Of a stretch of DNA of 64,000 nt, positions 30,001 to 39,000 are shown piece by piece. Location: assembly GCF_050320075.1 (NCBI RefSeq), contig NZ_CP190019.1; one strand, written 5' to 3'. The first letter of the stretch is position 1, and the number at the start of each line of letters is the position of its first letter. The DNA comes from Escherichia coli. GTDB taxonomy: Bacteria; Pseudomonadota; Gammaproteobacteria; Enterobacterales; Enterobacteriaceae. The position numbers were made by a program.

Positions 30001-33000
30001 CCACCAATAGCGGCTTCCCGACTGGCTCATTACAACGGAGGGGCAAGCCTGAGCTTCCGTTACCTGGACCACAAAACGGGAGAAACGGCGACGGAAACGC
30101 TGACACAGCGTGAGCTGGTCGCGAGGCTGAAACAGCACATCCCGGAGAAGTTTTTTAAGATGGTGAGGTACTTCGGGTTCCTTGCCAACCGTGTGTGTGG
30201 AGAGAAGCTGCCGCAGGTGTACCGTGCACTGGGGATGGATAAACCGGAACCAGTGGCGAAAGTGTGCTATGCACAAATGGTGAAACAGTTCCTGAGTCGT
30301 GACCCGTTCGAATGCGTGCTGTGTGGCTGCCGGATGGTATACCGCCGGGCCATTGCGGGGCTGAATGTATCAGGGCTGAAGAAAAACGCGCGGGATATCA
30401 GTCTACTGAGGTATATGCCGGCCTGACACAGGCTAAGTGTGCCCGGGAATCGGTGAAAGTATAAAAAACAGCCTGTTACGGTATAAAAATCGACCATACA
30501 GAGAGGGAAACCACCGGAGTGGTGGGAAAAGCAGAAAGGCTCACGTGGCATAAGGCGTGGACAATGGTATCGACTGGTTTTTCAATTTCCTATACGTCAA
30601 GAGACTGCTGACTGGTTGAGACCCGAGCGTAACCAAAAAGTCGCATAAAAATGTACCTTAAATCGAATATCGGACAACTCATGTCTATTATTACAAATTT
30701 ACGATTTAATAGACATATTAATGTAACAGTTTTACGATGTCCGATAATTTATAACATTTCGTACGGTTGGAAAAATGTTACTAAATGCCCGTCAGGCAGG
30801 GAGGCCGATATGCCCGTTGGCACTGTTGCAAATAGTCGGTGGTGATAAACTTATCATCCCCTTTTGCTGATGGAGCTGCACATGAACCCATTCAAAGGCC
30901 GGCATTTTCAGCGTGACATCATTCTGTGGGCCGTACGCTGGTACTGCAAATACGGCATCAGTTACCGTGAGCTGCAGGAGATGCTGGCTGAACGCGGAGT
31001 GAATGTCGATCACTCCACGATTTACCGCTGGGTTCAGCGTTATGCGCCTGAAATGGAAAAACGGCTGCGCTGGTACTGGCGTAACCCTTCCGATCTTTGC
31101 CCGTGGCACATGGATGAAACCTACGTGAAGGTCAATGGCCGCTGGGCGTATCTGTACCGGGCCGTCGACAGCCGGGGCCGCACTGTCGATTTTTATCTCT
31201 CCTCCCGTCGTAACAGCAAAGCTGCATACCGGTTTCTGGGTAAAATCCTCAACAACGTGAAGAAGTGGCAGATCCCGCGATTCATCAACACGGATAAAGC
31301 GCCCGCCTATGGTCGCGCGCTTGCTCTGCTCAAACGCGAAGGCCGGTGCCCGTCTGACGTTGAACACCGACAGATTAAGTACCGGAACAACGTGATTGAA
31401 TGCGATCATGGCAAACTGAAACGGATAATCGGCGCCACGCTGGGATTTAAATCCATGAAGACGGCTTACGCCACCATCAAAGGTATTGAGGTGATGCGTG
31501 CACTACGCAAAGGCCAGGCCTCAGCATTTTATTATGGTGATCCCCTGGGCGAAATGCGCCTGGTAAGCAGAGTTTTTGAAATGTAAGGCCTTTGAATAAG
31601 ACAAAAGGCTGCCTCATCGCTAACTTTGCAACAGTGCCCCTGGAAGCCGTAATGAGACTCGCGCCGCGTCCGTTCTTTGCCCTCTGCGTTCTGGTATTTA
31701 TTGCCGCCGCCGCGTTTAGCGCCTGGCGGCTGCTGCCTGCCGACAACGCGGGTGTCATGAGCTGTTCCACTAAGGGCATCATGCGCTTTGAGAACATGGA
31801 CAAAGAGAACGTTAACGGCAATATTCACTTCAATTTTGGCGCGCAGGGTAAAGGCTCGATGGTGGTCGAAGGTTACACCGACTCCGCCGCCGGCTGGCTC
31901 TACCTGCAACGCTACGTGAAGTTTACCTACAGCAGCAAACGCATCTCGGCCACCGAGCGTCATTACCGCATCAATCAGTGGGAATCGAGCGCCTCCTCGA
32001 TTGATGAATCGCCGAACGTGATTTTCGACTACTTTATGCGCGAGATGTCCGACAGCCACGACGGGCTGTTTCTCAACGCTCAGAAGCTCAACGAAAAGGC
32101 TATCTTGCTCAGCTCTATCAATTCACCGCTGTGGATCTGCACGTTGAAATCCGGCAGTAAGCTGAACTAACCCGTCAATCAAAAAAGACCATCCCCTTGT
32201 AGGGGCGTTCGCGACAGGCGGCCAGCCGCTGCGCCAGATTCCCCACATGCAGCTCCAGCTTATGGCCGTCAGGGTCGAGAAAATAGTAAGACGCCCCTTC
32301 ACTGCGGTTATCTTTCCATACCTCAGCCCCCGCCTGCGCCAGCAGAGCCACCACCCCGGCAAACTCTTCTTCCGCCACGCTGAAGGCGTAGTGGGTATAG
32401 TCGCTTTCCTGAGGGGGCGTTTTACGCCGCTGCTCATCCAGCGACAAGCACAGCCACAGCGCCCCACAGGAGAGATAGGCTCCGCTATCCCAGCTGGCGT
32501 GCAGGCGCATTCCAGGTAACTGCTGATAAAATGCCAGGCTTGACGCCAGATCGCTGACCGCCAGCGTCAGATGATTCAATCCCTGCAGCATGACTTTTCC
32601 TCCCGTTATCAAACCCTGTTGTAAACTGTGATCGGCGACGCATCCCCTCCCGGCCTCACCTCATCACCGGCTAAAAAGCGCATTTTTTGCGTTTAGCCTG
32701 CCATCGGAAACCTGCGCCTCGCCACACTAATCCCCGCTCTATGTTACCCCTTTTTTGAAATCATTTAGCAATCCAATAACATTTCATCCCCCCGGAAAAA
32801 GCGGGCTAAAAATCGCCTTATTGAAGACCAAATCAGCACCGACATTACAGCATAAAGACATAAATAAACGCCCTAAAAAGACTAAATCACAGAGCTATAT
32901 CCTAAATAATTACGGCACTGTTGCAAATAGTCGGTGGTGATAAACTTATCATCCCCTTTTGCTGATGGAGCTGCACATGAACCCATTCAAAGGCCGGCAT

Positions 33001-36000: not shown

Positions 36001-39000
36001 AGGTCTGCCTCGTGAAGAAGGTGTTGCTGACTCATACCAGGCCTGAATAGCTTCATCATCCAGCCAGAAAGTTATGGAGCCACGGTTGATGAGGGCTTTA
36101 TTGTAGGTGGGCCAGTTGGTGATTTTGAACTTTTGCTTTGCCACGGAACGGTCTGCGTTGTCGGGAAGATACGTGATCTGATCCTTCAACTCAGCAAAAG
36201 TTCGATTTATTCAACAAAACCAGTTACAGCCCTTCGGCGATGATTCTCGCCGCTGAAGCCAGCACATCGCGGCGGCGCTCTGCGTTCTGTTGCGGCTGGG
36301 TAAAATAGGTCACCAGAACCAGCGGCGCACGACCCTGCGGCCAGATCACCGCAATATCATTGGTGGTGCCGTAGTCGCCGCTGCCGGTCTTATCACCCAC
36401 AGTCCACGACGTCGGTAAGCCGGCCCGAATGCTGGCTGCGCCGGTCGTATTGCCTTTGAGCCACGTCACCAACTGCGCCCGCTGGGTTTCGCCCAGCGCA
36501 TGACCCAGCGTAAGCTGACGCAACGTCTGCGCCATCGCCCGCGGCGTGGTGGTGTCTCTCGGGTCGCCGGGAATGGCGGTATTCAGCGTAGGTTCAGTGC
36601 GATCCAGACGAAACGTCTCATCGCCGATCGCGCGGGCAAAAGCCGTCACGCCTCCCGGGCCACCGAGCTGGGCAATCAATTTGTTCATGGCGGTATTGTC
36701 GCTGTACTGCAACGCGGCCGCGCTCAGTTCTGCCAGCGTCATTGTGCCGTTGACGTGTTTTTCGGCAATCGGATTGTAGTTAACCAGATCGGCAGGCTTG
36801 ATCTCGACAGGCTGATTAAGCAGCTGCTTTTGCGTTTCACTCTGCTTAAGCACCGCCGCGACCGCCATAACTTTACTGGTACTGCACATTGGAAAGCGTT
36901 CATCACCGCGATAAAGCACCTGCGTATTATCTGCGGTATCGATGAGCGCGACGCCCAGCCGCCCTCCGCTGCTTTTCTCCAGCGCCGCCAGCTTTTGCTG
37001 CACCGCACTCGTCTGCGCATAAAGCGGCGCGCTGCCCAGCAGCAGCGGAATGCACGCCGCCGCCGCGAACATCATCCGTTGCACTCTCTTTGTCACCATC
37101 TCAAACTCCCAATACGGTCAATCCGTGTTACATCAGTATTCCCTAAATTCCACGTGTGTTTTTTATTAGCTTCAAAAATCACTATTTCACGAAGAATTTA
37201 GACTGCTTCTCACACATTGTAACATTATTTACAACCACCTTTCAATCATTTTTGATAAATCATTGATTTCATCTTTGCTGCAATGATACTTAATAAACTC
37301 TGCAAGTTATCCACAGAGCAACACTCAATTTTATTGATGATATTCTTATTATACCAGACATTTTTCATACACTCCCTTGTACGGATAGTTTTCCGACAAC
37401 TTCATGATTACATATCTTGCGGTTTTGATTATTTTTGCTGCAAGAAATACATACTTCAAACGAAAGGTCTTTATTTGCTGTCTGTATTCTGAAGAGTCCA
37501 AGGAATCAAACTTGAACAACAAAAATAGGTTATATGAAATCCGAATGGCACTGTTGCAAATAGTCGGTGGTGATAAACTTATCATCCCCTTTTGCTGATG
37601 GAGCTGCACATGAACCCATTCAAAGGCCGGCATTTTCAGCGTGACATCATTCTGTGGGCCGTACGCTGGTACTGCAAATACGGCATCAGTTACCGTGAGC
37701 TGCAGGAGATGCTGGCTGAACGCGGAGTGAATGTCGATCACTCCACGATTTACCGCTGGGTTCAGCGTTATGCGCCTGAAATGGAAAAACGGCTGCGCTG
37801 GTACTGGCGTAACCCTTCCGATCTTTGCCCGTGGCACATGGATGAAACCTACGTGAAGGTCAATGGCCGCTGGGCGTATCTGTACCGGGCCGTCGACAGC
37901 CGGGGCCGCACTGTCGATTTTTATCTCTCCTCCCGTCGTAACAGCAAAGCTGCATACCGGTTTCTGGGTAAAATCCTCAACAACGTGAAGAAGTGGCAGA
38001 TCCCGCGATTCATCAACACGGATAAAGCGCCCGCCTATGGTCGCGCGCTTGCTCTGCTCAAACGCGAAGGCCGGTGCCCGTCTGACGTTGAACACCGACA
38101 GATTAAGTACCGGAACAACGTGATTGAATGCGATCATGGCAAACTGAAACGGATAATCGGCGCCACGCTGGGATTTAAATCCATGAAGACGGCTTACGCC
38201 ACCATCAAAGGTATTGAGGTGATGCGTGCACTACGCAAAGGCCAGGCCTCAGCATTTTATTATGGTGATCCCCTGGGCGAAATGCGCCTGGTAAGCAGAG
38301 TTTTTGAAATGTAAGGCCTTTGAATAAGACAAAAGGCTGCCTCATCGCTAACTTTGCAACAGTGCCAAAAATAGTCCTTCAGTGGGACGAAATGATCCGG
38401 ACCGCTGGCTCCCTGAAGCTGGGCAAAGTACAGGCTTCAGTGCTGGTCCGTTCATTGCTGAAAAGTGAACGTCCTTCCGGACTGACTCAGGCAATCATTG
38501 AAGTGGGGCGCATCAACAAAACGCTGTATCTGCTTAATTATATTGATGATGAAGATTACCGCCGGCGCATTCTGACCCAGCTTAATCGGGGAGAAAGTCG
38601 CCATGCCGTTGCCAGAGCCATCTGTCACGGTCAAAAAGGTGAGATAAGAAAACGATATACCGACGGTCAGGAAGATCAACTGGGCACACTGGGGCTGGTC
38701 ACTAACGCCGTCGTGTTATGGAACACTATTTATATGCAGGCAGCCCTGGATCATCTCCGGGCGCAGGGTGAAACACTGAATGATGAAGATATCGCACGCC
38801 TCTCCCCGCTTTGCCACGGACATATCAATATGCTCGGCCATTATTCCTTCACGCTGGCAGAACTGGTGACCAAAGGACATCTGAGACCATTAAAAGAGGC
38901 GTCAGAGGCAGAAAACGTTGCTTAACGTGAGTTTTCGTTCCACTGAGCGTCAGACCCCAATACGTGCGCAACAACCGTCTTCCGGAGCCTGTCATACGCG

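Follow-up and report, generated by a model that had tools for sequence, protein, structure and literature searches.

The stretch of DNA analysed here, termed the window, comprises 64,000 nucleotides (nt) of an Escherichia coli contig (NZ_CP190019.1, RefSeq assembly GCF_050320075.1). Between the two ends of an interrupted Tn2 transposase gene (tnpA) it carries an array of three directly oriented copies of the insertion sequence IS26, which enclose the resistance genes fosA3 and blaCTX-M-65. Numbering the IS26 copies in the window from left to right, the array and its borders consist of the following features.

30597-30818, plus strand: left Tn2 fragment, made up of the 5' end of tnpR (30597-30646, minus strand), the res/intergenic region (30647-30809) and tnpA nt 1-9 (30810-30818)
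30819-31638, plus strand: IS26 copy 5, with tnp26 at 30882-31586
31639-32913, minus strand: fosA3 segment of 1275 bp (536 bp downstream of the gene, fosA3 and 322 bp upstream)
31652-32170, plus strand: FidL-like open reading frame within the 536-bp part, named after the RefSeq annotation of identical DNA
32175-32591, minus strand: fosA3 (NCBIfam FosA3/FosA4, 325 bits)
32914-33733, plus strand: IS26 copy 6, from the repeat search
33734-33999, plus strand: 266-bp fragment of the Tn1721/Tn1722 methyl-accepting chemotaxis gene (mcp), named after the RefSeq annotation of identical DNA
34000-35164, minus strand: far end of the ISEcp1 transposition unit, which includes the receptor remnant of the next line (PMC6052338)
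34067-35092, minus strand: remnant (C-terminal half) of a TonB-dependent receptor gene, 'iroN' in the literature, from the profile match and the literature
35165-36221, minus strand: IS903B, 1057 bp, from its inverted repeats and the RefSeq annotation of collinear records
35221-36189, minus strand: IS903B transposase gene, from the profile match
36224-37099, minus strand: blaCTX-M-65, with zero mismatches to the pHN7A8 gene (WP_013188475.1, CTX-M-65)
37100-37546, minus strand: 42-bp spacer and ISEcp1 remnant, the latter being 405 bp of the ISEcp1 right end (37142-37546)
37547-38366, plus strand: IS26 copy 7, from the repeat search
38367-38958, plus strand: right Tn2 fragment, made up of tnpA nt 2448-3006 (38367-38925) and a 38-bp inverted repeat (38921-38958), followed by a truncated IS1

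A repeat search identified seven IS26 copies in the window, each of 820 bp with both ends intact and with the terminal 14-bp inverted repeats GGCACTGTTGCAAA / TTTGCAACAGTGCC. The original prediction, made from the sequence before this analysis, had described copies 5, 6 and 7 as all plus-oriented and separated by spacers of 1275 and 3813 bp, and the search bore this out, with start-to-start distances of 2095 and 4633 bp. Copies 1, 2, 5, 6 and 7 do not differ at a single base, and chance cannot account for three identical 820-bp copies. The Tnp26 open reading frame of copies 5-7 encodes a DDE transposase of 234 amino acids on the plus strand and matches the IS6 family transposase model NF033587 of NCBIfam at 275.6 bits against a cut-off of 125. 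The predicted bounds of the array, 30819-38366, are correct but leave out a fourth directly oriented copy, with which the rmtB-blaTEM-Tn2/IS1294 segment becomes a third IS26-bounded unit; copies 4-7 all lie on the plus strand with spacers of 4783, 1275 and 3813 bp, and neighbouring units share an IS26. The four remaining copies are as follows.

2383-3202, 4243-5062 and 13216-14035, minus strand: IS26 copies 1, 2 and 3, from the repeat search
25216-26035, plus strand: IS26 copy 4, in direct orientation with copies 5-7, a G184N variant

Copies 3 and 4 have in common the substitutions G459A, G613A and G614A, which change Gly184 of Tnp26 to Asn (G184N), and the other copies are standard IS26. Enhanced activity of this variant is credited to Pong et al. 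2019 in PMC9019673. The two G184N copies are mutually inverted and bracket F-plasmid backbone at 14036-25215. None of the seven copies is flanked by an 8-bp target-site duplication (14 flanks compared in direct and inverted orientation, with no pair matching at 7 or more of 8 positions), as is expected after conservative events between IS26 copies or after adjacent deletions, and this is therefore no argument against their identity as IS26. An apparent 830-nt inverted repeat, in which 30809-30818 seemed to recur beside copy 2, was rejected as an artefact of lenient seed extension, since on direct reading only 6 of the 10 positions match.

The gene in which the array lies was mapped on an intact Tn2 located beside rmtB (L007, NZ_CP085076) with a tnpA of 3006 bp; the name Tn2, over Tn3 or Tn1, is taken from PMC6052338. 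Window positions 26069-28912 correspond to 1-2844 of this reference (rmtB, inverted repeat, blaTEM-1 and the 3' part of tnpR), 28913-30596 is IS1294 and has no counterpart there, 30597-30818 corresponds with 100% identity to 2841-3062 (50 bp of tnpR, res and tnpA nt 1-9), and 38367-38958 corresponds to 5501-6092 (tnpA nt 2448-3006 and the 38-bp inverted repeat). All parts of Tn2, that is the inverted repeats, blaTEM-1, tnpR, res and tnpA, are thus collinear with the reference and broken by IS1294 and by the IS26 array. The two tnpA pieces are both on the plus strand, and between them 2,438 bp are absent (nt 10-2447), or 2,437 bp if a G that could belong to either tnpA or the IS26 end is assigned to tnpA. 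This agrees with the earlier proposals that the array stands in place of about 2.4 kb of tnpA and that 38367-38925 is the 3' part of the gene. A single interrupted tnpA had also been proposed, to be refuted by inconsistent flanks; the two flanks keep the order of the gene and share one orientation. The 10 bp at 30809-30818 do mark the other end of tnpA, although only 9 of them belong to the gene and one is an intergenic base, and Tn2 identity runs for 222 bp leftwards to IS1294.

Being bounded by IS26 and located inside a gene, the array might be read as a classical composite transposon (IS26-cargo-IS26) that moved into tnpA as one piece. The outer flanks TGCCCGTT and AAAAATAG show no duplication, however, and the target has lost 2,438 bp; the missing 8-bp duplications and the 2.4-kb target loss exclude such a one-piece insertion. 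Moreover, the IS26 copies are direct, IS26 moves through cointegrate formation according to PMC4676283, and related plasmids show a stepwise content at fixed outer junctions, leaving this explanation with next to no probability.

Between copies 5 and 6, the fosA3 segment (31639-32913) is 100% identical both to pHN7A8 and to a pESI-like plasmid; neither its FidL-like open reading frame nor the mcp fragment beyond copy 6 has a match in NCBIfam. The 3813-bp cargo between copies 6 and 7 holds an ISEcp1-blaCTX-M-65-IS903B-receptor transposition unit that would have landed earlier in the mcp gene of Tn1721/Tn1722. Positions 33738-33999 are 100% identical to an intact copy of this gene in L005 (NZ_OV754012). 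The predicted receptor remnant is indeed a remnant of a TonB-dependent receptor, but the description had missed the 266 bp of mcp at 33734-33999 beside it. The best NCBIfam match of the remnant is PqqU, over positions 336-676 of 676 (E = 2e-184), with siderophore-receptor models far worse. Likewise, the gene announced as CTX-M-65-like is present, and the qualifier can be dropped: having no mismatch to the pHN7A8 gene that RefSeq annotates as CTX-M-65, it is CTX-M-65 itself. Within the ISEcp1 remnant, we take 37142-37155 to be the right inverted repeat and TACAAT (37216-37221) and TTGAAA (37240-37245) to be the -10 and -35 elements of the outward promoter. A single-nucleotide polymorphism (SNP) at 37213, just downstream of the -10 element, was considered as a window-specific promoter change and discarded, the window having the common allele and pHN7A8 being the odd one.

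The comparison with other plasmids shows how these segments behave. The same two tnpA junctions enclose a varying number of IS26 copies: one in pHB37-2, two in pHNMPC32 and p14406-FII, and three in pHN7A8 and the window. In pHB37-2 the single IS26 lies between ...GATATGCCCGTT and AAAAATAGTCC... and there is no cargo. The plasmids pHNMPC32 and p477Kp share the outer tnpA junctions and the neighbouring sequence with the window and have two IS26 copies and the CTX-M-65 unit only, while pHNMPC32 and p14406-FII lack precisely the 2,095-bp fosA3 unit. The whole array of three IS26 copies, 100% identical and in a version with a 4024-bp spacer, recurs between unrelated flanks in pD90-1 (Salmonella Indiana, IncHI2/N/Q1). 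Fixed outer junctions with a stepwise content, together with an array found whole in another context, indicate that the IS26-bounded segments behave as units, as had been predicted. It is thus highly probable that the region is an IS26 pseudo-compound-transposon array of the pHN7A8 type, with units added or lost through events between IS26 copies inside a broken Tn2 tnpA.

The same pattern would also result if, after first insertions made by Tnp26, all changes came purely from homologous recombination by RecA, acting on 820-bp IS26 copies that lie in separate molecules. Copies 5-7 are identical and hence good substrates for recombination, target-site duplications are absent, homologous recombination is the process favoured for F33 plasmids in PMC6052338, and PMC4676283 describes ordinary IS26 transposons as remaining stable in recA cells. 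The same paper nevertheless presents targeted conservative cointegration by Tnp26 as experimentally established, strongly preferred in recA cells and predicting the same products. In addition, adjacent deletions such as those of 2,438 and 211 bp found here (the latter described below) are impossible by recombination between IS26 copies alone. We therefore regard recombination by RecA as the only later process as unlikely, though deserving some weight.

In the history that we propose for this IS26 array, an IS26 would first have entered tnpA, with the right-hand junction that is now widespread, and an IS26-mediated adjacent deletion would then have trimmed tnpA to nt 9. Cargo units would subsequently have joined beside the resident IS26 through events between IS26 copies that leave no target-site duplication, either by Tnp26 targeted conservative cointegration of a unit with one IS26 or by RecA recombination between IS26 copies. 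PMC4196232 and PMC4676283 describe the conservative reaction as the joining of a circle with one IS26 beside a resident IS26. The 2095-bp unit, the 4633-bp unit or both could loop out as a circle with one IS26 and re-insert beside any other IS26; looping-out in this array would proceed mainly through host RecA. A circular IS26-fosA3 molecule has been invoked for the 2,095-bp difference between pHN7A8 and pHNMPC32 (PMC6052338), and inverse PCR has revealed a fosA3 minicircle derived from a related IS26-322 bp-fosA3-1758 bp-IS26 structure (PMC7385254).

The frequencies of the array junctions were determined in PLSDB (72,556 plasmids) with 60-bp queries at E <= 1e-12, a 300-bp query failing to separate exact junctions from two-piece matches. 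The junction of tnpA nt 9 with IS26 was found in 402 plasmids, that of IS26 with tnpA nt 2448 in 1332, that of IS26 with the 536-bp type of fosA3 segment in 174 and that of the ISEcp1 remnant with IS26 in 461, with the array junctions spread over six genera (Klebsiella, Escherichia, Salmonella, Citrobacter, Proteus and Morganella). Plasmids with the right-hand tnpA junction outnumber those with the left-hand one about threefold, and many plasmids have IS26 80 bp deeper in tnpA, a possible deletion intermediate; in pHNFP460-1 the Tn2 is described as longer by 80 bp (PMC6052338). Together, these frequencies and the deeper IS26 position elsewhere suggest a greater age for the right junction and, for the left one, an origin in a later adjacent deletion.

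Several points weigh against this account, or narrow it. The order in which the right junction precedes the deletion is inferred from junction frequencies only. The Tnp26 and RecA routes yield identical products, so that the sequence cannot separate them, nor can it show circle formation. Furthermore, a run of five G at the IS26 left end made Tn4352B excise efficiently according to PMC4676283. No such run is present at the left ends of copies 5-7, which are preceded by CCGTT, ATTAC and CGAAT; circles are accordingly predicted to form mainly by RecA recombination, with Tnp26-catalysed excision rare. The term translocatable unit, used in the original prediction, would here be a structural label for segments that are real as modules but for which efficient self-excision is not expected. 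Finally, the 211-bp deletion beside copy 6 could equally have come about by a different path.

This deletion is the feature that sets the array of the window apart. At the IS26 side, the mcp fragment is 211 bp shorter than in pHN7A8, pHNMPC32, p14406-FII, pD90-1 and the pESI-like plasmid, and the presence of the 211 bp in these relatives shows that the 3813-bp spacer derives from the usual one of 4024 bp. The deletion begins exactly at the last base of copy 6, the junction at 33733/33734 being GCTAACTTTGCAACAGTGCC followed directly by ACCACTATTGGGTAAGTGCT, and in this lineage the middle IS26 would have deleted the adjoining 211 bp of mcp in addition to the events outlined above. The 60-bp query for this junction had no exact match in PLSDB, in 5,426 complete E. 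coli genomes or in metagenome contigs. Three PLSDB matches at 93% were rejected, as they represent a different IS26-mcp junction lying 4 bp further in. Directly at the right end of copy 3 (13215/13216) lies another private deletion, which removed 213 bp that p14406-FII (L009 10920-11132) and a Shigella flexneri plasmid (L010) have. In unrelated IncL/M Klebsiella pneumoniae plasmids (L005, NZ_OV754012 5940-6040) and two E. coli records (H94, H95, H166 and H167 being among the records), the right end of an IS26 lies in the Tn1721 mcp gene 4 bp from the junction of the window, with a partial repeat of the IS26 end, 38 bp long, between IS26 and mcp. The mcp gene is there without the ISEcp1 unit, which marks that junction as an independent event.

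A different origin of the 211-bp loss would be the arrival of fosA3 itself, by replicative insertion of IS26-fosA3 into mcp at a distance of 211 bp from the resident IS26, followed by recombination of the incoming IS26 with the resident one, removing the 211 bp and one IS26. The two differences do separate the same two plasmids, p14406-FII keeping the 211 bp and being without fosA3, and the number of events is two, as many as for targeted insertion followed by adjacent deletion. Yet IS26-fosA3-IS26 is 100% identical to pHN7A8, which has the 211 bp, so that a pHN7A8-like intermediate followed by deletion is equally simple, and the private 213-bp deletion beside another IS26 without fosA3 points to plain adjacent deletion. 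Loss upon fosA3 arrival consequently appears distinctly improbable. An assembly artefact, affecting either the order of the segments or the 211-bp deletion, might be suspected because repeats of 820 bp exceed short-read length and cause mis-joins, and because the 211-bp junction is unique to the window; but the segment order matches the independently sequenced pHN7A8 and pD90-1, and the deletion begins exactly at the last base of IS26, like real adjacent deletions and with no reason on the part of an assembler to do so. We consider such an artefact extremely unlikely. The near-equal lengths of the deletions (211 and 213 bp) and the two mcp junctions 4 bp apart could reflect a preference of short-range intramolecular IS26 transposition for targets at about 20 helical turns or for a local hot spot, or G184N copies of the same plasmid driving ongoing deletions. 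Either explanation seems very unlikely, and coincidence is the likelier cause. The junctions at 33733/33734 and 13215/13216 in any case provide exact markers for tracing this plasmid lineage.

The segment to the left of the array, bounded by IS26 copies 4 and 5, contains the following further features.

26036-28912, minus strand: rmtB-blaTEM segment, from the Tn2 alignment and the annotation of the collinear pHNMPC32 and pHN7A8
26433-27188, minus strand: rmtB, within this segment
27211-27248: 38-bp inverted repeat of Tn2, beside rmtB
27358-28218, minus strand: blaTEM-1, within the same segment
28401-28912, minus strand: 3' part of Tn2 tnpR, from the alignment to the intact Tn2
28913-30596, plus strand: IS1294 (IS91 family), inserted in Tn2 tnpR, with its transposase gene at 29227-30426 (PMC6052338)

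Around Tn2 as a whole no 5-bp duplication was found, the flanks being TTTTC and AATAC. A TTG inside the right end of copy 7 opens a frame at 38320-38925 that is in frame with the last 186 codons of tnpA, and the same IS26-borne start opens a frame at 31592-32170 into the segment downstream of fosA3; these read-out frames are probably meaningless. At the left of the window, another resistance region rich in IS26 occupies positions 1-14036. Several F-type plasmids of E. coli and Shigella match it at 99.9-100%, and in them the matching stretch comprises mph(A)-mrx-mphR, aac(3)-IId and, between a pair of IS26 copies, aph(3')-Ia.

As to the backbone, the window had been grouped with F33-type plasmids. 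This is accurate for the resistance region, which is derived from pHN7A8, but not for the replicon, since the repA region (44515-45435) is only 93.5% identical to that of pHN7A8, an F33 plasmid, and 100% identical to that of p14406-FII (typed IncFIB/IncFIC). Identity to pHN7A8 decays from 41441, with a cluster of 21 SNPs, and ends at 41815, which places the recombination boundary near 41.4-41.8 kb. From these alignments, the backbone that carries the pHN7A8-derived resistance region appears to be F-type but not F33, and it is the one found in p14406-FII. ISCro1 occupies 41816-44514 (region 41698-44522) with the 8-bp duplication TTTTTGTA, and the copy in p14406-FII lies 110 bp upstream with the duplication CCTTATGG, which indicates an independent insertion or a local hop near the F replication region.

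The significance of the window lies mainly in what is combined in it. Resistance to fosfomycin (fosA3), extended-spectrum cephalosporins (CTX-M-65) and all aminoglycosides (pan-aminoglycoside resistance, rmtB), together with TEM-1, is contained within 13 kb, and the spread of this block across Klebsiella, E. coli, Salmonella and Proteus is explained by modules that can be swapped between plasmids wherever IS26 is present. Such module swapping via IS26 is established knowledge. The practical value of the present case is small: the non-F33 F-type backbone that carries its pHN7A8-derived resistance region and the junction of the 211-bp deletion are its sole specific details, and neither goes beyond what IS26 activity and recombination between plasmids ordinarily produce.

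Compared with known systems, the region is an already-described primary resistance region of the pHN7A8 type, whose structure and unit-wise behaviour are published (PMC6052338, PMC8765060, and He et al. 2013 by way of PMC8765060). The pHN7A8-type succession rmtB-blaTEM-1-Tn2/IS1294-IS26 array-tnpA fragment-IS1 remnant-pemIK is found in the window, and positions 14270-41815 are collinear with pHN7A8 (NC_019073 / JN232517) at 99.6-99.7% identity, apart from the one 211-bp deletion. Both have IS26-fosA3-IS26-mcp fragment-receptor remnant-IS903B-blaCTX-M-65-ISEcp1 remnant-IS26 in the same order and orientation, within the same Tn2/IS1294/rmtB/IS1 surroundings and with both tnpA junctions in common, and IS26-fosA3-IS26 (30819-33733) shows zero mismatches. 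In addition to its replicon, pHN7A8 differs in the 211 extra bp of mcp beside the middle IS26 (spacer of 4024 vs 3813 bp), in one SNP in the ISEcp1 remnant and in one in the tnpA fragment.

The closest overall relative is p14406-FII (NZ_MN823988), near-identical over window positions 2297-31639, 33731-45967 and 41500-64000, which shares the G184N IS26 copies, the tnpA junctions and repA. In the window, by comparison, the fosA3 unit has been gained, the 211 bp at copy 6 and the 213 bp at copy 3, both retained by p14406-FII, have been lost, and the ISCro1 site is 110 bp off. The pESI-like plasmid of Salmonella Infantis (pFSIS1502916) has the fosA3-IS26-CTX-M-65 core in common with the window, but differs in its outer flanks and in having 1758 instead of 536 bp downstream of fosA3. 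In this plasmid (L004 11090-12393, compared with window 37517-37560) the truncation point of the ISEcp1 remnant agrees to the base with that in the window, and what comes next is a 454-bp segment ('fip' in the literature) and then an IS26 of the G184N type in inverted orientation, where the window has a direct IS26. Beyond this family of plasmids, the array is comparable to Tn4352 and Tn4352B (Harmer and Hall; PMC4196232 and PMC4676283), in which direct IS26 copies likewise bracket a resistance segment and the unit consists of one IS26 plus the segment. With TTAC/GG, GAAT/GG and CGTT/GG at its left ends, the array resembles the stable Tn4352, unlike Tn4352B.

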